Below, one piece after another: positions 6,373-21,044 of a stretch of DNA of 64,000 bases. The notes under the pieces are model-generated. The model ran no database searches. It had not been told where the DNA came from and saw only the letters and a program-made list of their open reading frames with translations. The stretch's first letter is position 1, and every line of letters begins with the position of its first letter. A program made the position numbers and the translations under genes. The DNA is from a bacterium. Lineage in GTDB: Bacteria; Zhuqueibacterota; Zhuqueibacteria; Residuimicrobiales; Krinioviventaceae. The DNA lies in NCBI GenBank assembly GCA_963674595.2, contig CAXXFV010000006.1, positions 256,001 through 320,000 on the forward strand, in the 5' to 3' direction.

Positions 6373-7755
6373 ATGGTTGTTATGAAGTTTGGCGGTACTT
6401 CTGTTGGTAGTGCTGAAGCCATTAAGCGGGTATGTGAAATAATAAAAACCCGTGTAGAAAACGATCCTATCATTGTCGTATCGGCAGTGGGAGGTATAAC
6501 CAATAAATTTGTCAGTATTATTGAGAATTCAGCTAAAAAGAATAAAAATAATGTGCAAGATATTCTTGCAGAAATTGGTAAAAGACATGAAGAAATTATA
6601 AACGGTCTTGGTCTTGAACAAAATGAAGGACTGAAAATTTTATTGTGTGAAACATTGCAGGGAATTGAAAATATAGCGGATAAAATTTCTCAGGCTGGTG
6701 ATTTGGCCAAACACCTTCATGATGAATTGATGAGTATGGGCGAACTGCTCTCTGCCAATATTGTTGCCGAATATTTAAAAAGCATCGGCCTGGAAGGTAA
6801 ATTTGCAGATTCGCGTGATGTTATGGTAACGGATTCACAGTTTACAAAAGCTGTCCCCCAGTTTGAAGAATCACAAAAAAATACACAACAATATCTGAAA
6901 CCGTTGGTTGGTAAATATATTCCTGTTATGCAGGGTTTTATCGGACGTGACTCTTTTGGCAGAATTACAACCTTGGGGCGGGGTGGTTCGGATTATACGG
7001 CCACTCTTATCGGCGCCATGTTAAATGCTGATGTCGTTGAAATATGGTCTGATGTTGATGGCGTATTAACAGCGGATCCAAGTCTGGTAAAAGAGGCCAA
7101 ACGAATTAAATATATGAGTTTTCAGGAAGCCTCAGAGCTGGCATATTTTGGCGCCAAAGTATTGCATCCTTCCACTTTGTTACCTGCTGTTGAACGTAAC
7201 ATTCCGGTCCATGTTTTAAACTCTATGCGGCAAACAGATGGAGGGACCGTCATAGCCGGCAGCACACCAAACGGTAAACAAGAAGGATGTATCGTTAAAT
7301 CTATTGCTTATAAAGAAGAACTTGTGGTAATTACCGTTATGTCAACCCGAATGTTAATGGCACACGGTTTTTTAGCCTCAATTTTTGAAATTTTTAACAG
7401 ATATGCTGTTCCTGTTGATCTGGTGTCAACTTCAGAAGTAACTGTTTCTTTAACAATTAATCGCACAGATCATCTTGAAAACATTACACGGGAACTGGGT
7501 CGTTTTGCCCAGGTACGGGTTGAGCAAAACAAATCTGTTGTTTGTCTTGTCGGTGAACAAATGAAAAGTACTCAGGGTATGCCCGGAGAACTTTTTAGCT
7601 TGCTTAAAGATATAGACATACATCTGATTTCTCAGGGTGCTTCGGAAATTAATATTAGTTTTGTTATTGATGATAAAGCACTCCCCAAAGTTGTAAGTCG
7701 CCTGCATAACCATTATTTTAGTGGTGAGCTTGATCCTGAAATTTTTGCAGTTTAA
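6373..7755 (+). CDS. lysC: Aspartokinase (lysine-sensitive type) with ACT domains
   Basis: Motifs KFGGTSV, TLGRGGSDYTA, DVDGVLTADP, YFGAKVLHP, QGASEINISFV. Confidence 0.96.
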   Translation: MVVMKFGGTSVGSAEAIKRVCEIIKTRVENDPIIVVSAVGGITNKFVSIIENSAKKNKNNVQDILAEIGKRHEEIINGLGLEQNEGLKILLCETLQGIENIADKISQAGDLAKHLHDELMSMGELLSANIVAEYLKSIGLEGKFADSRDVMVTDSQFTKAVPQFEESQKNTQQYLKPLVGKYIPVMQGFIGRDSFGRITTLGRGGSDYTATLIGAMLNADVVEIWSDVDGVLTADPSLVKEAKRIKYMSFQEASELAYFGAKVLHPSTLLPAVERNIPVHVLNSMRQTDGGTVIAGSTPNGKQEGCIVKSIAYKEELVVITVMSTRMLMAHGFLASIFEIFNRYAVPVDLVSTSEVTVSLTINRTDHLENITRELGRFAQVRVEQNKSVVCLVGEQMKSTQGMPGELFSLLKDIDIHLISQGASEINISFVIDDKALPKVVSRLHNHYFSGELDPEIFAV

Positions 7756-7771
7756 TAAAAGGTATTTTATT

Positions 7772-8500
7772 ATGAATATAGCACTCGTTGGTTACGGACG
7801 AATGGGAGAAGAATTGGAAAAACTCGCTCCCCAATCCAATCATAACATTACAGCGATTTTTGATATTGATAATCCTTTGAAACCGGATTCAGATATTGCC
7901 GGTGCAGATGTTATGATCGATTTTACTTTAAAAGATGCTGTGATGAATAATTTAAAAATAGCAGCCCAAATGGGTGTTCCAATTGTTGAGGGGACAACCG
8001 GCTGGACAGATCAATTTGAACAGGTTTATGATATTGAAAATCTGACAATGATCTTTAGCCCGAATTATTCAATCGGCGTCTACCAGTTTACAAAACTGGT
8101 TGAAACAGCCGCCAAACTCTATGGTATGTTTGAAGATTATGATTGTTATCTGCACGAGTGGCACCATACCGGAAAAGCAGACAGTCCAAGCGGGACCGCC
8201 AACAAACTGGCCCATATTCTGCTTGAGAATTTGCCCCAAAAAGACAAAATATTAACAGAAACAAGCCATATCCAAATAGATCCTTCGGCCTTGCACGTAA
8301 CCTCTACTCGCGTTGGTAAAGTTCCAGGAACACATCAGGTTGGTTTTGAATCTCCCTATGATTCAATTCAGTTGACCCATCAGATACGTGGACGCGAATG
8401 TTTAGCGTTTGGTGCATTGAAAGCAGCCGAATGGATTGTTGGAAAAAAAGGAATTTTTACAATGGATGATTTTATGTCATCTCAGAACAACAAAAAATAA
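7772..8500 (+). CDS. dapB: 4-hydroxy-tetrahydrodipicolinate reductase
   Basis: Motifs GYGRMG, GTTGW, PNYSIG, EWHHTGKADSPSGTA; operon context. ATG at 7772. Confidence 0.95.
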   Translation: MNIALVGYGRMGEELEKLAPQSNHNITAIFDIDNPLKPDSDIAGADVMIDFTLKDAVMNNLKIAAQMGVPIVEGTTGWTDQFEQVYDIENLTMIFSPNYSIGVYQFTKLVETAAKLYGMFEDYDCYLHEWHHTGKADSPSGTANKLAHILLENLPQKDKILTETSHIQIDPSALHVTSTRVGKVPGTHQVGFESPYDSIQLTHQIRGRECLAFGALKAAEWIVGKKGIFTMDDFMSSQNNKK

Positions 8501-8514
8501 GGGATATTGTTTTG

Positions 8515-9408
8515 ATGGATTCTAAAAATTTTCGAGGTACAACCGTTGCGTTAATCACTCCTTTTGACAAAAATGGTAAAATTGATGAGCCGCGTTTAAA
8601 AAATCTTGTAGACTGGCAGGTCGAAAAGGGTACGGACGTCATTTTAGCCTGTGGCACAACCGGTGAAAGCGCAACCATGTCACACGATGAACATCATCAT
8701 GTAATGGATATAATCATTACACAAGTTAACGGACGTGTTCCTGTTTTATGTGGTGCAGGAAGTAATGCCACTGCTGAGGCTGTTGATCTGACCAAATACG
8801 CTGAAAAGGCAGGTGCTGATGCTATTTTGTCCGTAGGGCCTTATTATAACAAACCAACGCAGGAAGGTTTTTATCAGCATTTTAAAGCTATTGCAGAGTC
8901 TACTCATTTACCGATTGTTTTATATAATGTACCCGGTCGCACCGGTAGTAACATATCTTCAGAAACTACATTAAGATTGTCAAAAATACTCAACATTATT
9001 GGTGTTAAAGAAGCCAGCGGCAATATGTCGCAAATAATGGATATTTTACGACGCCGTGATGATGATTTTTTAGTGCTGTCGGGTGATGATTCCATAACCT
9101 TGCCTTTAATGGCAGTCGGTCTGGATGGTGTTATTTCTGTTGTTGCCAATGAAGCGCCGAGCTTGCTGCATGAAATGGTCCATGCTGCTTTTGAAAATAA
9201 CTGGGCAAAGGCCAAAGAATTACATTACAAACTACTGCCCTTGATGGAGTTTAACTTTGTAGAAAGCAATCCTATTCCTGTTAAAACAGCTTTGTCTTTA
9301 ATGGGTTTGATTGAGGACAATTTCAGACTGCCACTGGTAAAAATGACACAAGCGAATAAAGAAAAACTGGCAAGTATTTTAAAAGACCTTGAGCTTATTA
9401 CGGGTTAG
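8515..9408 (+). CDS. dapA: 4-hydroxy-tetrahydrodipicolinate synthase
   Basis: Motifs [36 protein letters not shown]. Confidence 0.97.
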
Positions 9409-9419
9409 GAGATAAACAG

Positions 9420-10253
9420 ATGCACAAGTTACAAAAAACAGTAGAAAATTTATTTTCATCATCTTCTGTAGATAAACAAGAGTTTCAGGCTTTTTTTCAA
9501 GAGTTTTTAAATGAACTGAATTACGGGCATATCCGTGCGGCAGAACCCTGCGGAGATGGCTGGAAAGCCAATGAATGGGTTAAAAAAGGTATTTTATTGG
9601 GATTTCGACACGGCGAATTTCGGGACTATTCTTTAAGCAGTTCATTTCGCTATTTTGATAAACATACCTATCCGCTGAAACCGGTTGAAATTTCCGACAA
9701 TATACGAATTGTACCGGGTGGAACAAGCATCCGGACCGGGTGTTATGTTGCTTCCGGTGTTGTTATTATGCCGCCTGCCTATATTAATACCGGTGCCTAT
9801 GTAGACCAGGGAACTATGGTTGATTCCCATGCTTTGGTTGGTTCCTGTGCTCAAATTGGTAAACATGTTCATCTGAGTGCAGCCGCGCAAATCGGTGGTG
9901 TATTGGAGCCGATCGGTGCTGTTCCTGTTGTTATTGAAGATGATGTGCTTGTCGGTGGGAATTGCGGTATTTATGAAGGAACCGTTGTAAAAAAAGGCGC
10001 TGTAATTGGCGCCGGCACAATTTTAACAGGTTCAATGCCTGTGTATGATTTGGTAAATAAAACAGTTATCAGGAAAACATCGGATAAACCTTTAACAATT
10101 CCGGAAAATGCTGTTGTTATTCCGGGGTCCAGACCGATTAATAATTCAGATTTTGCCAAAGAAAATAATTTACAAATGAATTGTGCCTTGATCATTAAAT
10201 ACAGAGACTCAAAGACCGACGCTTCCACAGCGCTTGAAGACGCTTTAAGATAA
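9420..10253 (+). CDS. dapD: Tetrahydrodipicolinate N-succinyltransferase
   Basis: Motifs [38 protein letters not shown], plus hexapeptide repeats. Confidence 0.95.
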
Positions 10254-10270
10254 AATATCTTATATTTTGC

Positions 10271-10305
10271 AAAAGGACATTTGAATCATCAGATGTCCTT
10301 TTTTT
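10271..10305 (+). terminator. Intrinsic terminator of the dap operon
   Basis: aaaaggacatttga-atca-tcagatgtcctttt followed by a T tail. Confidence 0.85.
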
Positions 10306-10502
10306 GTTTATATCGGTTAAATAGTAATTGACACCTTGTAAAGTTTTAGCTATATTTACCTTATTTATGACATGATTTATTTTGAATTTAATGAATTGAA
10401 GAAATATTAATTGTATTCAATAACATTTCAAAATCCACATCATTTATACATTACCAAAAACAATCCAATTTTATAAAATAACCTATGAGAACAGGCATTT
10501 AA

Positions 10503-11558
10503 ATGTTAATCAAAGAACATCAACGTCAGCCCCTGAAAAGAGACCTTAAAATCGGTTTATTTTTGTTGGGTGTGCTTGCACTCTTTTTTGGTAATTATAT
10601 CATTTCCGTGCCAATAAGTGCATTTGCGGCAATTATCAGTATTATTTTTTTCATCCTTTTTTCTTCTCTATATCTCTTACAGGGAAACCCGACTTTAAGC
10701 AAAGTTTTACAGCTTGAATTTGAAATGCTGCCAAGCCGGACCTGGGGCATACCCATCGGATTATGGCTGCTGACCATGGTTTATGCCCTGTTTACAAAGC
10801 AGTTAAGCGTTTATAATGTATGTGCCGGGCTTGTTTATTGTGTTGTACCTTTTTTGCTTATAAAACCTTTATTGCAAAAAGAGCCAAAACTTTTAGCGGC
10901 GGACGTATTTTTATTATTGTTTTTATGGCTGCCTATAGAATTTGGTTGGATACCCAATATTTCAATTCCCCCTGTTCAAGGCCAGGTAGCGATTTATAAA
11001 TTCATCGGCATTATAATTATTGTTTTTTTATATGCTTCTGTTCGCAAAATCCCGATTGGGTTCACATATCGGTTAAAGGGACAGGACTGGTGGTTGTCAA
11101 TACAAAATTTGCTGATGTTTTTACCTTTTGCGCTGGTAATTGGTTTTTTAACCGGCTTTATCGCCCTGTCACACCGAATGCCGGCCGGTTCGGAATTATT
11201 ATCCAGTTTTATTGCTATTTTTGTTTTTATTGCATTACCGGAAGAACTGTTGTTTCGTGGTGTGATACAGAATTTAATTGTAAAAAGAATGGCTCACGTT
11301 AAAAACGGTCAGATGAAAGCACTGATAATTTCATCTGTTATTTTTGGTCTTGCACATGCCAATAATCCCAGTGCACCATTTTTATCAATATCATTTTTTA
11401 ATTTTGGCACGTGGCAGGTTCCCTGGGTCTATGTTATTCTGGCGTCCATTGCCGGATTTTTCTATGGATGGACGTTTATAAAAACAGGTAAAATAACAGC
11501 CGCCGCATTGGTGCATCTTTATGTAGACTGGATTTGGAGTAATTTTTTAAGCGGATAA
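10503..11558 (+). CDS. CPBP (Abi/CAAX, Rce1-like) intramembrane glutamic protease
   Basis: Polytopic membrane protein with EELLFRG, FGLAH and a C-terminal HLYVD motif. Confidence 0.88.
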   Translation: MLIKEHQRQPLKRDLKIGLFLLGVLALFFGNYIISVPISAFAAIISIIFFILFSSLYLLQGNPTLSKVLQLEFEMLPSRTWGIPIGLWLLTMVYALFTKQLSVYNVCAGLVYCVVPFLLIKPLLQKEPKLLAADVFLLLFLWLPIEFGWIPNISIPPVQGQVAIYKFIGIIIIVFLYASVRKIPIGFTYRLKGQDWWLSIQNLLMFLPFALVIGFLTGFIALSHRMPAGSELLSSFIAIFVFIALPEELLFRGVIQNLIVKRMAHVKNGQMKALIISSVIFGLAHANNPSAPFLSISFFNFGTWQVPWVYVILASIAGFFYGWTFIKTGKITAAALVHLYVDWIWSNFLSG

Positions 11559-11560
11559 CT

Positions 11561-12169
11561 ATGAGAGAAACGAAATTAAATTTGGATGATATTTCACCCA
11601 AAATCATAGGTCAAAAGGTGTTACTGGGTCCGTTTCGTTCAGAACTGGCGGACACTTACCGACGTTGGCTGCACGATCTGGAAACGAGTGTAAATTTACA
11701 CCCGAATATATTATTAACTTTTGAAGACGAGCAGGAGTGGTTAAGGTCTTTTGCAAAACAAGGCAATATCGGTTTTACAATTTATGAAAAGAAAACCGGT
11801 ACACCTATAGGCTCAACAGGTCTTCATTTTAATGAGGGTGTCAACTATACGGCCGAATTCGGAATTTTAATTGGTGAAAAGTCTTTTCAGGAGAAAGGGC
11901 TGGGAACTGAGGCAACCGCATTGACTGTTGATTATGGCTTTAATATTTTAAATTTATCGAGTATTAGTTTAAAAGTCCATGAGTTCAATAAAAGAGGTTT
12001 TCATGTTTATGAAAAAGTCGGGTTCCGAACCGTTGGAATCAGACGAAATTCTTTTTATCTGGCAGGAAAGTTTTATAATGATATTTTAATGGACATTTTG
12101 CCTCAGGATTTGAATTCAGGATTTTTCAAAAATTTTGTTCACAATATAACCCAAGAGAATACAAAATAA
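11561..12169 (+). CDS. GNAT N-acetyltransferase (RimJ/RimL/SpeG-like)
   Basis: Motifs AEFGILIGE..QEKGLGTEA, NKRGFHVYEKVGF, YNDILMDIL. Confidence 0.9.
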   Translation: MRETKLNLDDISPKIIGQKVLLGPFRSELADTYRRWLHDLETSVNLHPNILLTFEDEQEWLRSFAKQGNIGFTIYEKKTGTPIGSTGLHFNEGVNYTAEFGILIGEKSFQEKGLGTEATALTVDYGFNILNLSSISLKVHEFNKRGFHVYEKVGFRTVGIRRNSFYLAGKFYNDILMDILPQDLNSGFFKNFVHNITQENTK

Positions 12170-12190
12170 AGAAGAACCAGGAAAACAGAA

Positions 12191-13465
12191 ATGACAAAAT
12201 TTTTTAGCGGCAAAAAAAACAGAATAATGGTATTTGGTATTGGATCATTTGCACATGCAGCAATGGAAGTATTAGCCGCTGAAGGTGCTGAAGTAAGTTG
12301 TTATCTTACTCGTGATTACGGCCACTTTGGACCCAATCAGGTAGGAGAAACCTATTCATTTATAGATTACCCCAATCCATGTGCTCTTTTAAAAAAGAAA
12401 AAGATAAACCTGGTTGTGCCCATGTCAATTGACTGGCATTATCAGGACTGGACAACAGAATTTCTGCAGCTCGGAATTCCAATATTATCACCCATTCGTG
12501 AAGCAATGTTAATTGAACGTGACCGGGATTTTGCACACAAGCTGTGCAAAAAGTATGGAATACCGTTTCCAATCTCTTATGTGGCCAAAAACCGACCGGA
12601 CGCATTGGAATTTTTGGAAAAACATCCAAAACCCTATGTTATAAAAAACCCTCTATGTTCACCAAGCAGCCCTGTTCATACAATCGTCTGCGAAAATGTA
12701 GCTGACACAAAAAGCTGGCTTTCTAATGTTGATTATGCTGAAGGTGTTTTTTTACAGGAATATTTGGGACGACGCGAAGTTGGTCACATTGCCTTTATAG
12801 CAAATGGTGAGATCATCCCCATGGTGACCAACCAGGAATATAAACGTGCTTTTGACGGCAATATGGGACCGGTTGCCGGAGCTCCATTAGGTGGCCTTAT
12901 TGAAGCAGATCTTGATGATAAATACGGTTTGGTTGAAGATTTAATAAAACCTTTACAACCCTGGTTTCAAAAAACCAATTTTTATGGCCCAATTCAGGTA
13001 ACGGCTGTTCAGCGTGACCGGAAATGGTATGTTATTGAGTATAATGTCCGTACAGGTGTGACAACAGGGCCGGCATTATGGCGAATGCTGGAAAATCCTG
13101 CCCAGGTTATAATGGATGTTGCGAATAATAAAAAACCTCAGTTAAAATTTAAAAAGAATATGGAATGTGCCTGTACGTTGACATTGGCAGGTTGGGGCTA
13201 TCCTTATACCCGGGTTGTCGGTCCATATTTGACTGTTCAGCTTCAGGAAAAACCGACATGTGATATTTGGTGGAATGAAGTTAAAGGTGAATCATTGTCC
13301 CGGCTGTTCATGTCTGGGCACCGTATTGCAGATATAATTGCGCACGGGCCGACCATGGATGAGGCTATTACCAGGGCTTATGAAAATATTAAAAAGATAT
13401 ATTGTTTAGCAAGTTACTATCGCCTGGATGTGGGGCAAAGCCTGTGGCCTCCGGGGAATGATTAA
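12191..13465 (+). CDS. Divergent PurD-fold ATP-grasp ligase (GAR-synthetase paralog)
   Basis: PurD-like layout (PYVIK, QEYL, QEYKRAFDGNMGP, IEYNVR, GYP, YRLDVG), but the substrate motifs are altered. Confidence 0.8.
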   Translation: MTKFFSGKKNRIMVFGIGSFAHAAMEVLAAEGAEVSCYLTRDYGHFGPNQVGETYSFIDYPNPCALLKKKKINLVVPMSIDWHYQDWTTEFLQLGIPILSPIREAMLIERDRDFAHKLCKKYGIPFPISYVAKNRPDALEFLEKHPKPYVIKNPLCSPSSPVHTIVCENVADTKSWLSNVDYAEGVFLQEYLGRREVGHIAFIANGEIIPMVTNQEYKRAFDGNMGPVAGAPLGGLIEADLDDKYGLVEDLIKPLQPWFQKTNFYGPIQVTAVQRDRKWYVIEYNVRTGVTTGPALWRMLENPAQVIMDVANNKKPQLKFKKNMECACTLTLAGWGYPYTRVVGPYLTVQLQEKPTCDIWWNEVKGESLSRLFMSGHRIADIIAHGPTMDEAITRAYENIKKIYCLASYYRLDVGQSLWPPGND

Positions 13466-13500
13466 TTTTATTATTGCGAATACAAACCGGATATATTTTA

Positions 13501-14280
13501 ATGAATCTGTTTTTTTCAGAATACAAGTCGGATTACTCTAATTATATTTTCCCTTATGTTATTTGGGGGACCCCTGAATCGCACGAAACACCGGCTGATA
13601 TTTTTAATAAAGGTTTTTTACCCAATTCCAAAAATCTTGACCGTTTTTATCTTTGCAGAAATGTCCGTGTCGACCTGGAACGATTTTTACCGTCTTCTGA
13701 AAATCGTCGTGTTCTGCGAAAAGGAAGCATATTTGAAACCAAGCTTTATAAGCGCAGTGATTTCGATTTTAATGACAAATGGTTATCCTTTTGTCTGGAT
13801 TATGCCGATACCAAATTTGGTAACGGAGTGATGAGCCGGGACAGAATTTTAAGTCTTGTTAATTCACCTATTGTCTCTCATTTGCTTTTGTTTAAACATC
13901 GCGAAACAGAGGAGGATGTAGGACTTGTTTTTTTATTCCTGGACTCGTCCAGAATAGCGTTTTATTACTATTCTTTTTATAACCTGGATTTTTTTAAACA
14001 AAATCTTGGTATGTACATGATGACGTCGGCTGTAAGTTTTTTTAAAGAGTTGGGCTATGATTATATTTATCTCGGCTCATGTTACAGTCGTAATGCTTTA
14101 TATAAAACGCAATTTAACAGTTTTCAGTTTTTTAATGGCTTCAAGTGGTCTGAAAATATTGATGAACTCAAGTTTTTAATCGACCGTGATAATGGAAATG
14201 TTGATAAACATTTATTTGAGAATGATATATATTTACAAAACTTTTATCCTGACGGAACAAGTTTTATCAAAAAATCTTAA
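13501..14280 (+). CDS. ATE/Bpt-like aminoacyl-tRNA-dependent transferase (GNAT fold)
   Basis: CRNVRVDLERFLPSSENRRVLRK resembles ATE_N. YYYSFY...LGMYMM...YIYLGSCY...YKTQF resembles ATE_C. Confidence 0.75.
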   Translation: MNLFFSEYKSDYSNYIFPYVIWGTPESHETPADIFNKGFLPNSKNLDRFYLCRNVRVDLERFLPSSENRRVLRKGSIFETKLYKRSDFDFNDKWLSFCLDYADTKFGNGVMSRDRILSLVNSPIVSHLLLFKHRETEEDVGLVFLFLDSSRIAFYYYSFYNLDFFKQNLGMYMMTSAVSFFKELGYDYIYLGSCYSRNALYKTQFNSFQFFNGFKWSENIDELKFLIDRDNGNVDKHLFENDIYLQNFYPDGTSFIKKS

Positions 14281-14300
14281 TCAAAACATCGGAGTAAAGC

Positions 14301-15833
14301 ATGGCGCTATCTGGTATTGATTTTGTTATTGTGTTATTGTATCTCGGCGGAATTATCGCAATGGGGTTTGGGTTCCGCAAGTACGTTAATTCATCAGAAG
14401 ACTTTTTCCTAGCCGGTAAAATGCTGCCGTTCTGGGCAATCGGTATGTCGATTGTCGTATCAGATATTGGAGCTGTTGATTTTGTCGGTTTAACAGGTCA
14501 GGCATACAGGTATGGTATTGTTGTCGGCAATTTTGACTGGATAGGCTCTGTTCCGGCAATGATATTGGCAGCATTGGTATTTATTCCCTATTACTGGCGT
14601 GCCGGTGTATTTACCATACCGGAATATTTGGGAAGGCGTTACAATACCGGCGTTCGTACGATTCATGCCCTTGTTTGGCTTGTTTTTATGGCATTTGGAT
14701 TAGGTATCATGCTTTGGGCTACCGGTGTTTTATTAAGTGAGTTAATGGGCTGGCCTATTATGATTTCAATTATTATTACGGCCATTATTGTAGGGCTTTA
14801 TACAGTAATTGGCGGCTTGTCAGCCGTGGTTATGACGGATGTTGTTCAGCTTATTGTCATGTTTGTTGGTGGTATAGCTATTTTAGCCCTTGGTATGTGG
14901 GAACTTGGCGGGTGGAGTGGAATGGTTGATAAAATAACCTCTTATGGTCCTGAATTTTCCGACCACTTTAATCTGATCATTTCACCAAAAGCTAACACGC
15001 CTTATCCCTGGACCGGTATACTTTTTGGCTTGGCTATTGTGCTGGCCCCTGCTTACTTTATTGCCAATCAAACTATTGTTCAACGTTCTCTCGGCGCTAT
15101 TGACGAATGGAATGCAAAAGCGAGTGTTTTATTTGGCGCTTTTTTGAAAATGTTTATACCTGTTCTTTTCGTTTTTCCAGGCCTTATTGCTTTGGGATTG
15201 TTTCCCGGTATTGCAGACGGAGACCGGGCTTTTCCTGTCATGATAAAAGAACTGCTGCCGCCCGGTATGACAGGGCTGGTATTTGCCGCTTTTTTTGCCG
15301 GATTAATGTCCAGTGTTGACTCTACTGTAAATTCTGCCGCAACAATATGGACAAAAGATATTTACGAAAAGTTTATGAAAAAAGATGCGGATGATCGTCA
15401 TTATCTTATTGTAGGACGTATATTTACAGTTGTGCTTTTACTTTTTGCGATTATTACTGCTCCGATCAGTGAAAAATTTCCGGGTATCTATGTATATGTC
15501 CAGACACTTTTATCATTTTTTCAGGGACCTACATTAGGTATACTTGTACTCGGAATGTTTTGGTCACGCATGACCCAATGGGGCGGACTCGTTGGGTTAA
15601 TTGGCGGTATGTGCGTTTCGGCTTTACTTTATGTTTTTAAATCAACTTTGTTTACAATTGATGATCCGTTTCTTTATATATCCTGGTGGAGTTTTCTGGC
15701 TTCATTAATATTAGGCACAGTCACCAGTCTGACAACCAGGCCGGAACCGATTGAAAAACTGCGGGGACTGGTTTATGGTATGGTTGTTAAAGATGACGAA
15801 TTTCAAAATGTTCTTGAAAATCGTTTAAATTAG
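14301..15833 (+). CDS. Sodium:solute symporter (SSS)
   Basis: Motifs DFFLAG, TIPEYLGRRY, GGLSAVVMTDVVQ, Q.IVQRSL, GLMSSVDS..NS.AT. Confidence 0.93.
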   Translation: MALSGIDFVIVLLYLGGIIAMGFGFRKYVNSSEDFFLAGKMLPFWAIGMSIVVSDIGAVDFVGLTGQAYRYGIVVGNFDWIGSVPAMILAALVFIPYYWRAGVFTIPEYLGRRYNTGVRTIHALVWLVFMAFGLGIMLWATGVLLSELMGWPIMISIIITAIIVGLYTVIGGLSAVVMTDVVQLIVMFVGGIAILALGMWELGGWSGMVDKITSYGPEFSDHFNLIISPKANTPYPWTGILFGLAIVLAPAYFIANQTIVQRSLGAIDEWNAKASVLFGAFLKMFIPVLFVFPGLIALGLFPGIADGDRAFPVMIKELLPPGMTGLVFAAFFAGLMSSVDSTVNSAATIWTKDIYEKFMKKDADDRHYLIVGRIFTVVLLLFAIITAPISEKFPGIYVYVQTLLSFFQGPTLGILVLGMFWSRMTQWGGLVGLIGGMCVSALLYVFKSTLFTIDDPFLYISWWSFLASLILGTVTSLTTRPEPIEKLRGLVYGMVVKDDEFQNVLENRLN

Positions 15834-15845
15834 GAGGATTTATAA

Positions 15846-16055
15846 ATGTTTAATTTTAATTGGATTGCAGATTTATCTGAAGGCTGGGCACGTTTTTTAG
15901 TCGTTATGGCATTTATATTACCCTTAATTTTTGCATTGACCCTGCCCAGGAAATATATTTATAAAGGTTCTCAAGATATTGTTCTTTGGAAAAATTTGAA
16001 AATTTGGGTTTTTGTTATTGTTGCCGTTCAGGTTGCTATTTATATTTACTTTTAA
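15846..16055 (+). CDS. Small two-TM membrane protein
   Basis: Strong AGGAGG RBS, two hydrophobic segments, 12 bp after the SSS gene. Confidence 0.7.
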   Translation: MFNFNWIADLSEGWARFLVVMAFILPLIFALTLPRKYIYKGSQDIVLWKNLKIWVFVIVAVQVAIYIYF

Positions 16056-16071
16056 AGAGGAGACTCTTGTT

Positions 16072-16269
16072 GTGAATAAACAAAGTCAAGCACAAATCAA
16101 CAAAATGATAGGTTCCTTTTTAGCTGTTTTTGGGATTGCTGTTATAATAGCCATTTTTTTTACAACGACATTTCATGGTCGCATTGTTAATCTGGCAGCC
16201 GGATTACTGTTATTGCTTTGTGGCGGATTTGCGCTTTTCATGTCATATAGGGCTGGGAAAAAGGAATGA
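16072..16269 (+). CDS. Small two-TM membrane protein
   Basis: GAGGAG RBS before GTG 16072; two hydrophobic segments; overlaps the next gene by 4 bp. Confidence 0.65.
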   Translation: MNKQSQAQINKMIGSFLAVFGIAVIIAIFFTTTFHGRIVNLAAGLLLLLCGGFALFMSYRAGKKE

Positions 16270-16805
16270 AAAAAATTGTTGAACCAAAGATTGAACAGGA
16301 AGAAGCTAAAGAACGATTAGCTAAAAATTTGCGTCCATTGGGACGCAAAAGAGATATTATAAAATCTGAAATGATTTATTTACCATCATACGTATTTAAT
16401 GTATCTGTTGAAACAGCACGTTCAAACAAGCGTGAAATCGTCATTTGTCTCGATGCTATTTTGGGTGAGTTTGCTTTTTTTAATGATTTGCCGTTGCATG
16501 ATTTGGAGGAGATTAATTTTAAAACCATTGATTTTTTAATCCAGCCATCTGAAGCAACAGATAAGGGAAAAGAACATATTCGTCGGTTTTTGTTACAACA
16601 AAGTTTAAAACAAAAATATCGCGCTGAACTTCAGAATATTAATTTGGATAATGAAATTTATTATCCGTTTTGGATTGGATATTTTTATCGTAAAGGTGCT
16701 TTGGACTTTGATGTTATTGATGGTGTAAGTGGCGAAAAACAGGGGGTAACGATGCGGCCTGTCTTTATAAAATTTTTAATGGAGTTAAATAACAAAGATC
16801 AGTAG
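16266..16805 (+). CDS. Hypothetical soluble protein with an internal two-fold repeat
   Basis: Repeated pattern IYLPSYV...LDAILGE and IYYPFWI...IDGVSGE. Confidence 0.75.
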   Translation: MKKIVEPKIEQEEAKERLAKNLRPLGRKRDIIKSEMIYLPSYVFNVSVETARSNKREIVICLDAILGEFAFFNDLPLHDLEEINFKTIDFLIQPSEATDKGKEHIRRFLLQQSLKQKYRAELQNINLDNEIYYPFWIGYFYRKGALDFDVIDGVSGEKQGVTMRPVFIKFLMELNNKDQ

Positions 16806-16907
16806 ATACTTTTTTTTATTGGGATTTTAAATTGTTGTTATTTTATAATAAATTTTATTATATTTCAACTTTTGTATAAATCCATACTTAATGAAAGAGG
16901 TATCAAA

Positions 16908-17936
16908 ATGTATCAGACTCCACGTGAAATAGTAAAAGCAAGTTTAACCTTTGCTACCCCTCAACGCATGCCTCGTGATTTATGGGTCTTGCCTTGGGCT
17001 GACGAATATCATCCTTCAGTTGTAAAATCGTTAAAAGACCTGTACCCACCTGACTTTGTTACCGTAGAAAGTGTCTATCGCCCTTCTCCAAGAATAAAGG
17101 GAGAAAAGTATGATGTAGGATATAGCACAGATGAATGGGGTTGTGTCTTTAAAAATATACAAAAGGGAGTTCATGGTGAGATTGAAAATCCAATAGTGTC
17201 GGACATAAAAAATTGGCAATCTGTTCAACCTCCCTATGAAATATTGCCGGAAGATAAGATAAAAGCTGCAGAAAAAGTAAATCATTTTTGTGAAAAAACA
17301 GATAAATTTGTTTTTGCGGACTGTTGTCCCAGGCCCTGGGAGCGTCTGCAATTTTTACGCGGAACAGAAAATGCCATGATGGATGTTATGGTTCCCGATG
17401 AGGGTGGAGCCGACTTGATCAAGTTGGTGCATGATTTCTATATGAAGGAATTGGAATTTTGGGTTAAAACAGATGTTGATGCCATTATGTTCATGGATGA
17501 CTGGGGTACCCAAACTCAGCTTCTGATTCCACCAAGAATTTGGCGAGAGCTTTTTAAGCCATTGTATAAAGAATACTGTGATATTGCCCATGCAAACGGA
17601 AAATTTGCATTTATGCATTCTGATGGTAATATTCAGGAAATATATACCGATCTTGTTCAGGTTGGCGTTGATGCTGTCAACTCTCAGCTTTTTTGTATGG
17701 ATATGGAATATTTGGAACAGAACGTAAAAGGACAAATAACATTTTGGGGTGAAATCGACCGTCAGCATGTTCTTAATTCTAAAAATCCACAGGATGCACG
17801 AGATGCTGTTAAAAAAGTTGCCAAACATTTATATGATCCCAAAGGCGGGGTTATAGCACAATTTGAATTTGGACCGGGTGCTGAACCGGAAAATACCTTT
17901 GCTATTTTTGACGAATGGGACCACATTACATCATGA
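16908..17936 (+). CDS. Uroporphyrinogen decarboxylase/MtaA-CmuA family protein
   Basis: Motifs DEWGC, LRGTEN, FMDDWGTQ, FMHSDG, FWGEIDRQH. ATG 16908 follows GAGG. Confidence 0.85.
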   Translation: MYQTPREIVKASLTFATPQRMPRDLWVLPWADEYHPSVVKSLKDLYPPDFVTVESVYRPSPRIKGEKYDVGYSTDEWGCVFKNIQKGVHGEIENPIVSDIKNWQSVQPPYEILPEDKIKAAEKVNHFCEKTDKFVFADCCPRPWERLQFLRGTENAMMDVMVPDEGGADLIKLVHDFYMKELEFWVKTDVDAIMFMDDWGTQTQLLIPPRIWRELFKPLYKEYCDIAHANGKFAFMHSDGNIQEIYTDLVQVGVDAVNSQLFCMDMEYLEQNVKGQITFWGEIDRQHVLNSKNPQDARDAVKKVAKHLYDPKGGVIAQFEFGPGAEPENTFAIFDEWDHITS

Positions 17937-17981
17937 TAAATTGATTATATATTATAAAATATTTTGAAAGGACATTCTCAT

Positions 17982-20900
17982 ATGTTCGAACAGGAACGAT
18001 CATTATTAGAAGCTCGTGTTCAAGTTTTTATCCAAAGATTAGAACGACTTGTATATAGCAGCAAAAAATTATTTGATGCTGAATATTGTATTTATGCCCC
18101 ACCGGTGGACTTTGAAAATCGTAGTCAAGGTGAATTTAAACCCATTACAGAGGGTGATTACTGGGGGGAAAATTGGCAAGTCGCATGGTTTCATTTAAAA
18201 GGGAATGTTCCAAAGGAATGGCAGGGTGAAAAAATTGCAGCATATATCAACCTTGGAGGTGAAGCTTTACTGTTTGATTCTAACGGAAACCCTGTAATAG
18301 CTTTTAGTTGTCACTCCATTTTTGATGAAAAATTTTACAGAGACAGATATATTGTAGCGGAAAAAGCCAAAGGAAATGAGACATTTGATTTTTGGATTGA
18401 AGCGACGGCTGCCGAACTTTTTGGGTTGAATATTGATTCTGATCCCGAGTTGGAAAATCCAAAACGTTTCGGTGAGCATAAAGCCAAAGTTTCAGATTTA
18501 GCTCTGGCCGTTTTTCGTGAAGATATTTGGCGGTTGCTGTTGCAGGTCGATTCCTTGAATGATATTATGAAAAAACTCGATCTAAACAGTGTTCGTCGTG
18601 CACGCATCTTGAAAGCATTAATGAATGCTATTGATATTTTTAATTCTGATCGTGATTCCGTAGCAAAAAGTCAAAAATGTCTGGAAACAGAACTGGCTAA
18701 AAAAAGTAACAGCTCTGCGCTAACAGCAGTTACCGTTGGTCACGCTCATTTGGATACGGCATGGCTGTGGCCGTTGTCTGAAACAATTCGCAAATGTGCC
18801 AGAACGTTTTCCACACAAATACGCCTTATGGAAAAGTATCCGGAATATATTTTCGGTGCATCCATGCCTCAGCACTATGCATTTGTTAAAAAGTATTATC
18901 CGAATCTATTTGATGAGATAAAAGAGAAAATTAATCAGGGCCAATGGGAACCCCAGGGAGGTATGTGGGTTGAAGCTGATTGTAACCTGATTGGCGGTGA
19001 AGCGATGGTGCGTCAGATCCTGCATGGGAAAAACTATTTTCGTGATGAATTCGGGTTTGATGTTAAAAATCTCTGGCTGCCCGATGTCTTTGGATACAGC
19101 GCAGCATTACCGCAAATTTTAAAAAAATCCGGCATAGAATACATGGTAACTCAAAAGTTATCATGGAACCAGTTTAATAAAATGCCTTCACATACTTTTG
19201 TATGGAAAGGTTTGGATGATAGTGAAATTATCGCCCATTTCCCTCCGGAAGATACCTATAATTCAAATTTAAAACCTTCGGGCCTCATGTATGCACAGGG
19301 AAATTTTAAAGAAAAAGACGAATTGGATGAATTCCTGACGCTCTTTGGAATTGGTAATGGAGGTGGAGGTCCGACAGAAGAGATGATTGAACGCGGTCTT
19401 ATACAAAAAGACCTTGAAAGTACACCAAAAGTTAAATTCAGTTCTGCACAATCTATGCTTGACCGGCTTGAAAAACATCGTGACCAGTTAATGCGCTGGG
19501 AAGGTGAGTTATATTTTGAACTTCATCGTGGAACTTTAACTTCTCAGGCCTATAATAAAAAAATGAACCGTTTTATGGAACTAAAGTTACGGGAGTTGGA
19601 ATTCCTGTATTCTTTGGTGGATTTTTCCCAATACCCTCAAAGTGATTTGGATGAAATGTGGAAAAAAGTGCTTCTTTATCAATTTCACGATATCATTCCA
19701 GGTTCGAGTATTACCAAAGTTTATGAAGATACTCGTGTCGGTTACAAGGAACTTGAACAAAAGTCTGCTGAACTTTATAACAAAGTCTGCACTCTTTTGA
19801 CAAACGAAAATCATAATTGTGTTTCACTTGTGAATTCTCTTTCATTTACATTTAAAAAACATATCGAATTACCCAAAAGTTGGTGTGGATATGAAATTCT
19901 TGATGAAGAACAAAATATAATTCCTTCTCAAATTGTCAACGGTAAACCGGTTATTTTGTATGACGTAGAATCTCTGGGAAACATCAAAGTTTTTAGAGGA
20001 CAGCAAAATGAAACTGCCGACTCTAAATTACCCAAAGAATTGGTAATGGAAAATGAATTGGTTCGGTATGAGTTTGATGAAAACGGACAAATATGCCGGG
20101 CTTTTGATAAAACATGTCACCGTGAAATTCTTTGTCAGGGTAACGGAAACATTTTGTCTCTTTATGAAGACCGTCCGGTAAACTGGGATGCCTGGGACGT
20201 TGACAGATTTTATGAAAACCAGCTTTTACAAAATGCAAATCTGATCTCCGGAGAATGGCTGGATGATGGTGACGTGTTACAACGAATCAAATTTGTTTTT
20301 GAAATCGGAACTTCAAAAATTGAACAATTTGTAATTTTGGACAGCAACAGCAAAAGACTTGATTTTGTAACCAAAGTAGACTGGGTTGAGCGTCATAAAA
20401 TGCTTCGGGTTGCTTTTCCTGTTAATATAATATCAGATACCGCATTATTTGAAATACAATATGGGTCTGTTAAAAGAAATACCCATCGTAACACAAGCTG
20501 GGATATGGCCAGGTTTGAAGTTGCCGGGCATCGTTTTGCCGATCTATCTGAACATGATTATGGTGTCGCTTTGTTAAATAATTGTAAATATGGTTATAAA
20601 GTATTTGGAAATACCCTGGACCTTAACCTGTTGAGGGCCACCGTGAATCCTGATCCTGAAGCAGACCGTGGCGTCCACGAGTTTACCTATAGTTTATTGC
20701 CTCATTGTGGAGATTTTAGCAATTCGGATGTCATTGCTGAGGCTGCTCAACTGAATCAGGGAATTTCTTTGATTGAAGGTGAAATAAACGACAATTTGTT
20801 TATGCCTGTGCAGTTAAAAGGTAACGTTATACTTGAAGTTTTGAAAAAATCGGAAAAAGAAAATGCCCATATAGTTCGTATATACGAACCATACGGGAAC

Positions 20901-21044
20901 CGTACCACTGCTTTGATTGCCTTTAATAAAGATGTAAATGTTTCTTCTGTCAATCTTATGGAAGATGTCATTGAACATGTTTCCGGGAAAAAAATAGAGC
21001 TACATTTTAAACCTTTTGAAATCAAAACATTTAAAATAGCATAA
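17982..21044 (+). CDS. GH38 alpha-mannosidase
   Basis: Motifs GHAHLDTAWLWP, GGMWVEAD, WLPDVFGYS, GELYFELHRGT, QFHDIIPGSSI. Confidence 0.95.
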   Translation: MFEQERSLLEARVQVFIQRLERLVYSSKKLFDAEYCIYAPPVDFENRSQGEFKPITEGDYWGENWQVAWFHLKGNVPKEWQGEKIAAYINLGGEALLFDSNGNPVIAFSCHSIFDEKFYRDRYIVAEKAKGNETFDFWIEATAAELFGLNIDSDPELENPKRFGEHKAKVSDLALAVFREDIWRLLLQVDSLNDIMKKLDLNSVRRARILKALMNAIDIFNSDRDSVAKSQKCLETELAKKSNSSALTAVTVGHAHLDTAWLWPLSETIRKCARTFSTQIRLMEKYPEYIFGASMPQHYAFVKKYYPNLFDEIKEKINQGQWEPQGGMWVEADCNLIGGEAMVRQILHGKNYFRDEFGFDVKNLWLPDVFGYSAALPQILKKSGIEYMVTQKLSWNQFNKMPSHTFVWKGLDDSEIIAHFPPEDTYNSNLKPSGLMYAQGNFKEKDELDEFLTLFGIGNGGGGPTEEMIERGLIQKDLESTPKVKFSSAQSMLDRLEKHRDQLMRWEGELYFELHRGTLTSQAYNKKMNRFMELKLRELEFLYSLVDFSQYPQSDLDEMWKKVLLYQFHDIIPGSSITKVYEDTRVGYKELEQKSAELYNKVCTLLTNENHNCVSLVNSLSFTFKKHIELPKSWCGYEILDEEQNIIPSQIVNGKPVILYDVESLGNIKVFRGQQNETADSKLPKELVMENELVRYEFDENGQICRAFDKTCHREILCQGNGNILSLYEDRPVNWDAWDVDRFYENQLLQNANLISGEWLDDGDVLQRIKFVFEIGTSKIEQFVILDSNSKRLDFVTKVDWVERHKMLRVAFPVNIISDTALFEIQYGSVKRNTHRNTSWDMARFEVAGHRFADLSEHDYGVALLNNCKYGYKVFGNTLDLNLLRATVNPDPEADRGVHEFTYSLLPHCGDFSNSDVIAEAAQLNQGISLIEGEINDNLFMPVQLKGNVILEVLKKSEKENAHIVRIYEPYGNRTTALIAFNKDVNVSSVNLMEDVIEHVSGKKIELHFKPFEIKTFKIA

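Follow-up and report, generated by a model that had tools for sequence, protein, structure and literature searches.

A conserved PurD-like ligase and ATE-like transferase pair is linked to the absence of MurE and MurD and may supply peptidoglycan stem-peptide bonds

We analysed a 64,000-nucleotide stretch of DNA (hereafter the window; contig CAXXFV010000006.1, assembly GCA_963674595.2) from a bacterium of the Krinioviventaceae, with emphasis on two adjoining genes, one encoding a PurD-like ATP-grasp ligase and the other an ATE/Bpt-like transferase of the GNAT fold, which are referred to as the core genes. Both belong to a set of eight open reading frames (ORFs), all on the + strand, that occupies positions 10503-16805 with successive gaps of 2, 21, 35, 20, 12, 16 and -4 bp. 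A preliminary description of the locus had reported this co-oriented arrangement; its coordinates and gaps were reproduced and its family calls match ours. The first gene (10503..11558) encodes a CPBP (Rce1-like) intramembrane protease whose domain scores above the cut-off (PF02517, 66.9 bits vs 22.4) and whose translation shows the motifs EELLFR, FGLAH and HLYVD, which we take to be the three catalytic motifs of CPBP proteins. It is followed by a GNAT acetyltransferase gene (Acetyltransf_3, RimJ/RimL-like; 11561..12169; PF13302, 71.8 bits), by the PurD-like gene (core gene 1; 12191..13465; GARS_A and GARS_C; TIGR00877 at 119.5 bits vs a cut-off of 288), by the ATE-like gene (core gene 2; 13501..14280; ATE_C at 23.4 bits vs a cut-off of 25) and by a sodium:solute symporter (SSS) gene (14301..15833; PF00474 (SSF) at 246.5 bits; the YidK-type model PRK10484, the closest, at 266.5 bits, under its cut-off). 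Two small membrane ORFs (15846-16055, and 16072-16269, the latter read from a GTG inside an ORF listed from 16012) and an ORF of 179 amino acids (aa; 16266-16805) close the set, and no family model reaches its cut-off on these last three (15846..16805). Regarding the start of core gene 2, a TTG at 13474 would open the frame earlier than the ATG at 13501; the latter is supported by the orthologues, which begin with MK(L/I)xFSEY.

The distribution of these genes was assessed in two sets of loci. Among the 61 relatives searched, orthologues of the PurD-like protein were found in 30 (53-73 % identity), four further matches at 25-26 % identity being ordinary PurD; across the phylum labels KSB1, Calditrichota and Verrucomicrobiota, the orthologues are 51-70 % identical. 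For the close-relative set, 20 loci were fetched together with roughly 9 kb of flanking sequence to either side. Fifteen of them contain the ATE-like gene, and the remaining five genomes carry it elsewhere. The CPBP gene occurs in nine, every one from the window's family, and in 9/9 loci of that family the PurD-like gene follows it directly; the GNAT gene occurs in 3/20, and the SSS and small genes in 0/20. For the wider set, one genome per species was scanned, which gave 376 stretches encoding an ATE-like relative, and the best 80 of these were examined; they are labelled candidate division KSB1, Calditrichota/Caldithrix and mostly Verrucomicrobiota, with a few other labels. The PurD-like gene is present in 48 of these 80 loci. 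Several loci have a gene of some 1.2 kb between the two core genes. It encodes alanine racemase (alr), which was found in 51/80 loci and directly upstream of the ATE-like gene in 45, so that the usual order elsewhere is PurD-like / alanine racemase / ATE-like. When only the 65 loci with at least 3 kb of upstream sequence are considered, 33 hold both PurD-like and alr genes, 10 the PurD-like gene only, nine alr only and 13 neither. The other genes are rare (CPBP 12/80, GNAT 3/80, SSS 2/80, and the small genes and the 179-aa gene 1-2/80 each), and 16/80 loci hold none of the scored genes. The conserved unit is the PurD-like and ATE-like pair, usually accompanied by alr, and the rest of the eight genes is local. 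The proposal of an undescribed amide-forming unit, made in the preliminary description, is supported for the pair; an eight-gene system is not supported.

At the level of the window's phylum, both core genes are held by 65 of the 167 genomes, the ATE-like gene only by 15, the PurD-like gene only by 4 and neither by 83 (the phylum tallies include G158 and G162, flagged as unpublished, whose omission shifts counts by at most 2 and changes no conclusion). An ATE-like orthologue was found in 76/167. Four of the 15 genomes with the ATE-like gene only hold just a paralogue of 36-38 % identity, and eight good-quality genomes among them hold the orthologue; no alternative ligase was seen beside alr or the ATE-like gene in genomes without the PurD-like gene. 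Fusions of the two core genes were sought among longer proteins and none was found, which is weak evidence. Two unusual architectures were met. P0171 (373 aa) consists of GARS_A and ATE_C and may be an assembly or deletion artefact. P0198 (809 aa, on one metagenome contig) is a singleton fusion that joins an ATE-like domain to PPDK_N (ATP-grasp) and PEP-utiliser (swivel) domains; its two nearest relatives bear PF27448 where P0198 has the ATE-like part.

The racemase is a housekeeping enzyme. In 4/4 Verrucomicrobiota carriers checked, the linked alr is the sole alr of the genome, and the idea of a dedicated extra racemase was rejected on this ground; all four also have an ordinary ddl. A replacement of Ddl by one of the core enzymes was likewise rejected, ordinary ddl genes being present in the window's genome and in 5/5 other carriers. 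The window's genome has two alr genes, both away from the locus and 38-44 % identical to the linked type. In the window's family, the cluster no longer includes alanine racemase and has gained the CPBP membrane protease.

Upstream of the CPBP gene, four genes on the + strand (6373..10253) were assigned through Pfam to aspartokinase, dapB, dapA and dapD, i.e. to lysine/diaminopimelate supply. They are predicted to form a transcription unit separate from the CPBP-led genes; dapD and the CPBP gene are separated by a terminator-like hairpin at 10271-10302 and, at 10328-10356, by the best promoter-like site, which comes from a weak scan that found 27 sites vs 23.4 expected by chance. Elsewhere, the same dap genes lie within 9 kb in 3/9 loci of the window's family (L030, L031, L032), and a lysA-like decarboxylase gene stands directly upstream of the CPBP gene in L049 and L050. 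Downstream of the eight genes come a URO-D-like gene and then a GH38 alpha-mannosidase gene. The statement that neither purine genes nor aat lie nearby holds at the locus. The symporter, the two small membrane ORFs, the URO-D-like gene and the GH38 gene all follow the pair (14301-21044) and have the appearance of a distinct unit for the use of sugars, attached to the operon only in this genus. Between 5500 and 17500 no riboswitch or leader RNA was detected, and a single snoRNA match, below the gathering score, was taken as chance.

Some other neighbours of the ATE-like gene were noted. In 13/80 loci (within L066-L111, e.g. L069:8716-10392) and also in L145, the gene that directly follows the ATE-like gene encodes a Wzi-like outer-membrane protein; in G060, a second Wzi-like gene sits where the PurD-like gene would be. 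An oligopeptidase F (M3) gene is directly upstream of the ATE-like gene in L073, L089, L107 and L114, all without alr and PurD-like genes. In G144, which is without a PurD-like gene, a FemAB/Acetyltransf_6 gene (L148:5013-5993) overlaps the start of the ATE-like gene by 4 bases.

This gene context bears on a first alternative, in which the cluster makes some other aminoacylated metabolite, a lipid or a D-Ala-containing envelope polymer, with the CPBP, GNAT and transporter genes providing processing, capping and export or import. The eight co-oriented genes, closely spaced and with no notable terminator-like site inside, are in keeping with it, as are the Wzi-like genes of the 13 loci and the MprF synthase domains found among the fold matches given below. 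Against this, the accessory genes are not conserved, as counted above; the pair itself is well conserved across phylum labels and near-universal in carrier families, unlike secondary metabolism; and the Mur ligase pattern described below is left unexplained. We consider this alternative quite unlikely. The preliminary description had favoured a pathway of this kind, i.e. the building of an aminoacylated metabolite or the tagging of a protein or lipid, and we found no evidence pointing to a secondary metabolite or to tagging.

A bona fide purD gene (556.5 bits) lies on another contig (C29) of the window's genome, so that the gene at 12191-13465 is a PurD paralogue, as had been supposed. Two findings had been named beforehand as fatal to the pairing, i.e. 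that the core genes do not co-occur in other genomes, or that the ligase is the only PurD of its own genome. Since the two genes are found together and adjoining in many other genomes and a separate purD is present, neither speaks against the pairing. The AF2 model of the PurD-like protein (pLDDT 88.9) shows the full four-domain PurD fold, and Foldseek matched it to 13 PurD entries (E 1e-32 to 1e-26, TMq 0.76-0.83, 17-23 % identity), after which biotin carboxylases follow at TMq about 0.65. The PurD study of Yamamoto et al. (2022; PMC8880213) describes binding of Gly by Asp212, Arg287 and Glu292 and of ATP by Lys103, Lys143, Glu185, Glu192 and Lys214, and gives the binding mode of phosphoribosylamine as unknown. 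The window's protein retains the motifs EYK, EYN-x-R and GxR. In 45 PurD-like sequences, the Lys and the E-x-N-x-R motif are kept; the Asp212 position is occupied by Glu (QEYK), the Arg287 position is kept (N-x-R), and GDPE is changed to G-V/I-T-T/S-G-P with loss of Glu292. Within the N-domain, GGREH, presumably a hallmark of PurD, is changed to G-x-G-S-F-A-H. The enzyme would still be expected to make an acyl phosphate and hand the acyl group to an amine, but its two substrates are both likely to differ from those of PurD. What the ligase has in common with PurD (EC 6.3.4.13) is thus the four-domain ATP-grasp fold, the ATP/Mg residues, the Arg for the substrate carboxylate and likely the chemistry, i.e. 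an acyl phosphate attacked by an amine. It differs from PurD in being linked to alr, to the ATE-like gene and to Mur ligase loss, without purine context.

The ATE-like protein is only distantly related to ATE/Bpt. NCBIfam arginyltransferase models reach at most 46.7 bits on it (cut-offs 170-358), and it matches neither ATE_N nor PF02388; many of its homologues carry a precomputed PF04377 match. At E<=1e-3, 2151 members of the family were counted in the 90 % clusters; at 50 % identity there are 411 clusters. Compared with solved structures, the AF2 model (pLDDT 94.8) comes closest to ATE1 of human, yeast and K. lactis (E 2.3e-9 to 1e-6, TMq about 0.60; top chains 8tzv, 8e3s and 7wfx), followed by the aminoacyl-phosphatidylglycerol synthase domains of MprF and then by FemX and Sba18 (E about 1e-5, TMq 0.41-0.45), so that all leading matches are aminoacyl-tRNA-dependent transferases. 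According to Kim et al. (2022; PMC9351520), Tyr303-Lys304 of the K. lactis enzyme (klAte1) are the counterparts of Phe304-Lys305 of FemX, a basic helix binds the 3' part of the tRNA, mutagenesis ties the Tyr-Lys pair and the helix to catalysis and tRNA binding, the acidic acceptor is recognised by an Arg pocket, and zinc is bound by four cysteines. Five positions (R56, Y195, Y201, K202 and G213) are invariant in 81 aligned ATE-like sequences, and a basic helix, SSENRRILRK, is near-invariant among the orthologues. A weak profile match equates family positions 140-205 with ATE1 residues 238-305 and places Y201-K202 at the Tyr-Lys pair, this mapping being approximate. When the family profile was run against solved structures, a first alignment gave no match at E<=1 and a second gave only weak GNAT matches, with ATE1 at E 0.5; no ATE1 chain was matched at E<=0.1. 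Together, the fold class of the model and the conserved residues suggest that the enzyme may use aminoacyl-tRNA as donor. It shares with ATE1/Bpt (PF04376, PF04377) a C-terminal core (YLG...YK) and, behind the RV...F...S motif, the basic helix, and differs from them in lacking ATE_N and the zinc cysteines (its three cysteines are scattered and form no four-cysteine cluster) and in being a stand-alone protein of about 260 aa. A second ATE-like subfamily (35-37 % identity) was noted in family f9 (L141-L144, i.e. G051, G133, G126 and G046); it has no conserved neighbours, the adjoining genes encoding a restriction endonuclease, an ABC exporter, a nitrilase-type hydrolase and an MFS transporter.

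Given this homology, the ATE-like protein could be an N-degron transferase of the Bpt type, labelling proteins for ClpS/ClpAP, its neighbours being unrelated. It is indeed the only ATE/Bpt relative in the window's genome, in which Aat, canonical Bpt and ClpS were not found. Yet the absence of ClpS extends to 12 of the 18 further genomes of the family, all 18 with the ATE-like gene; the six that have ClpS all have Aat as well (Aat in 7/18). The lack of an ATE_N match and of the four-cysteine cluster is a further difficulty, and no account would be given of why its linkage to alr and the PurD-like gene is conserved. We therefore regard an N-degron role as very improbable. A complementary distribution with Aat was also considered and rejected, Aat and the ATE-like gene coexisting in families f8, f10 and f11.

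The inventory of Mur ligases was established for the window's genome, whose completeness is 97.6 %. It holds exactly five Mur_ligase_M ORFs, i.e. MurF (401.6 bits, in the cluster mraZ-rsmH-ftsI-murF-mraY-ftsW), a MurD-type ligase (405.1 bits), an Mpl/MurC-type ligase (mpl 447 vs a cut-off of 388.7), FolC and PgsB. No MurE was found in this genome, where tblastn with the MurE of a relative matches only Mur_ligase_M paralogues at 23-28 % identity. Three other carriers hold fewer such ORFs. G168, a Verrucomicrobiota genome with the PurD-like/alr/ATE-like trio, has an Mpl-type ligase (mpl 471.4; murC 311.4, below cut-off), MurF and FolC; G167, from the same phylum and with the same trio, has three Mur_ligase_M ORFs that were not individually named and whose scores match those of G168; G060, with alr and the ATE-like gene only, has an Mpl-type ligase, MurF and FolC. 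The closed genome G008, from the window's family and with the pair, has an Mpl-type ligase, MurE, MurF, FolC, a second FolC-like ORF and PgsB, and no MurD. MurE was not found at E<=1e-40 in G167, G169 and G170. As carriers keep MraY, FtsW, FtsI, MurF, Ddl, Alr and the Mpl-type ligase, they appear to make peptidoglycan; what they are missing is one or two of the ligases for its peptide.

Some features of these inventories were noted in passing. The PgsB-type poly-gamma-glutamate synthase of the window's genome (341 bits) lies at G000:C4:359500-360640. One syntenic slot, bounded by a gene for an unknown 409-aa protein and by aspartokinase, holds dapA2 and the MurD-type ligase in the window's genome (G000:C4:136331-141400), and MurE followed by murA in its closed relative (L157, G008:C1:5650700-5656000). 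The MurD match of the window's genome is alone among 19 genomes of its family.

Carriage of the pair goes strongly together with a lack of MurE and MurD, an association that, like the housekeeping racemase as usual third partner, the preliminary description had missed. It was counted in 40 ATE-like-bearing genomes reached through the loci, 30 of them from Verrucomicrobiota-type records: MurE is present in three (two above the cut-off; one carrier is a 12.5-Mb bin) and MurD in two. An even sample of 151 Verrucomicrobiota gives the background, with MurE in 149, MurD in 143 and the ATE-like gene in a single genome (G168), which is without MurE and MurD. Within the window's phylum, MurE is found in 14/76 ATE-like-bearing genomes vs 68/91 others, and MurD in 6/76 vs 35/91; by the PurD-like gene, MurE is found in 11/69 genomes with it vs 71/98 without.

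From the conservation and adjacency of the pair, the folds of its products and its negative association with MurD and MurE, we infer that it supplies the peptidoglycan stem-peptide bonds of MurE and, in Verrucomicrobiota, of MurD, probably on a free peptide that is loaded by the Mpl-type ligase. We give this reading a probability of about one half. In the minimal carriers, the L-Ala–D-Glu and the gamma-D-Glu–residue 3 bonds would be left unaccounted for, and the conserved unit would consist of two amide-forming enzymes. The neighbours found elsewhere, i.e. diaminopimelate/lysine genes and the one FemAB-type gene, are counted in favour of a role in wall-peptide synthesis.

A possible course of events would be as follows. 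The peptide L-Ala-gamma-D-Glu-X, X being diaminopimelate or lysine, would be built free of nucleotide: the ATE-like enzyme would move L-Ala from Ala-tRNA onto the alpha-amine of D-Glu, and the PurD-like ligase would activate a carboxylate as acyl phosphate and link gamma-D-Glu to X. The Mpl-type ligase would then put the free peptide on UDP-MurNAc, and an ordinary MurF would attach D-Ala-D-Ala, the product of Alr and Ddl. Because an aminoacyl-tRNA donor offers an activated alpha-carboxyl only, the ATE-like enzyme could, of the two bonds, make only L-Ala–D-Glu, and only on a free peptide; the gamma-D-Glu bond requires activation of a carboxylate, which suits an ATP-grasp ligase. D-Glu would be an acidic acceptor, like those that ATE1 and Bpt use. 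This full assignment, i.e. the L-Ala–D-Glu bond to the ATE-like enzyme, the gamma-D-Glu–diaminopimelate/lysine bond to the PurD-derived ligase, loading to the Mpl-type enzyme and completion to MurF, is put forward tentatively, and we regard it as rather doubtful in its detail.

Two other accounts of the wall association were weighed. In the first, MurF would be retargeted and would attach an X-D-Ala-D-Ala tripeptide made with tRNA. This variant accounts better for the tight adjacency of alr; however, MurF scores 401-426 bits and the Mpl-type ligase 441-471 bits alike in genomes without and with MurE, so that neither enzyme looks retargeted, which argues against it. In the second, the pair decorates normally made peptidoglycan: the ATP-grasp ligase would attach a small amino acid, D-Ala or another, to the residue-3 side-chain amine, the ATE-like enzyme would extend the branch from an aminoacyl-tRNA in a Fem-like manner, and an unrecognised enzyme would add residue 3. 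Such an arrangement has a precedent in E. faecium, where D-aspartate ligase acts on the residue-3 side-chain amine and is paired with a racemase. The position of alr directly upstream of the ATE-like gene in 45/80 loci fits it, as do FemX and Sba18 among the fold matches, the FemAB-type gene of L148 and the genomes that hold MurE together with the pair. It leaves unexplained, however, the absence of MurE in 37/40 and 62/76 carriers; it has no candidate for the missing step, the window's genome being without a further Mur_ligase_M ORF; and the linked alr is the sole housekeeping racemase and not a dedicated extra copy. We judge decoration unlikely.

A number of observations weigh against the proposed replacement of MurE and MurD. 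In the window's own genome, a MurD-type ligase is retained and the Mpl-type ligase also barely passes the murC cut-off (337.2 vs 335.1). Fourteen genomes of the phylum, including the closed G008, hold the ATE-like gene together with MurE, and G045 has adjoining MurD and MurE plus the pair. Conversely, 23/91 genomes without the ATE-like gene are also without MurE (e.g. 5/8 in family f4 and 5/10 in f10), and in G175, from the Verrucomicrobiota sample, none of MurD, MurE and the ATE-like gene passes the thresholds used; this genome is either an incomplete bin or a third solution. Among the eight good-quality genomes with the ATE-like gene and no PurD-like gene, five are also without MurE. MurD (TIGR01087) is nearly absent from the window's class with or without the pair (f2 0/14, f6 0/4, f9 0/14, f15 0/5), so that its loss there needs another explanation, and the inventory of the pair-less genomes G048, G138 and G056 is limited to MurE, MurF, an Mpl/MurC-type ligase and FolC. 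Distant ATE-like genes were considered as an explanation of the MurD-less, pair-less genomes (G048, G138, G056, G029 and G040) and rejected, one being found in 1/5 only. No mur gene adjoins the pair in the loci, nor was any fusion to a Mur ligase seen. Finally, the counts ignore the kinship of related genomes, and most of the genomes are metagenome bins.

The proposed system can be compared with known cell-wall enzymes. Fem/MurM and Sba18, which depend on aminoacyl-tRNA for additions to cell-wall precursors or amino sugars, appear to have in common with the ATE-like protein the double-GNAT fold class, as judged from its model, and the use of aminoacyl-tRNA for cell-wall chemistry outside the ribosome. 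What Fem enzymes add is branches, whereas in the carriers a main-chain step seems to be missing. Mpl recycles the murein tripeptide (TIGR01081), and the carriers keep an Mpl-type ligase. The favoured scheme would reuse the reaction from free peptide to UDP-MurNAc. In known bacteria Mpl salvages the peptide of the old wall, whereas in the carriers it would work in net synthesis, on a peptide not made by Mur ligases. Precedents for replacing or extending stem-peptide steps exist, i.e. Aslfm with its racemase in E. faecium and the MurD2/MurL variant in Xanthomonas. They concern other families and steps, and to our knowledge none pairs an ATP-grasp ligase with an ATE-like transferase.

In the literature covered, no description was found of the pair or of free-living lineages without MurD and MurE; the amidoligase survey of Iyer et al. 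(2009), which lay outside this coverage, reportedly deals with gene contexts of ATP-grasp enzymes and aminoacyl-tRNA transferases and may mention the pairing. The superfamilies and the pathway are known; what appears new is the pairing, together with a probable replacement of core steps by non-homologous enzymes.

The Mur ligase steps of the cytoplasm belong to textbook biochemistry and are near-universal and targets of antibiotics. If the favoured reading is true, there would be a second way of building the stem peptide, in which the ATE/Bpt fold gains a role outside protein degradation and a purine enzyme, PurD, has been recruited to wall synthesis. Under the full assignment of bonds, the route would be partly tRNA-dependent, and entire lineages among the Verrucomicrobiota, Calditrichota and KSB1-like bacteria could do without MurC, MurD and MurE. 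If the favoured reading is true, missing mur genes in metagenome bins, e.g. where they are taken as a sign of wall-less life, would also have to be read differently.

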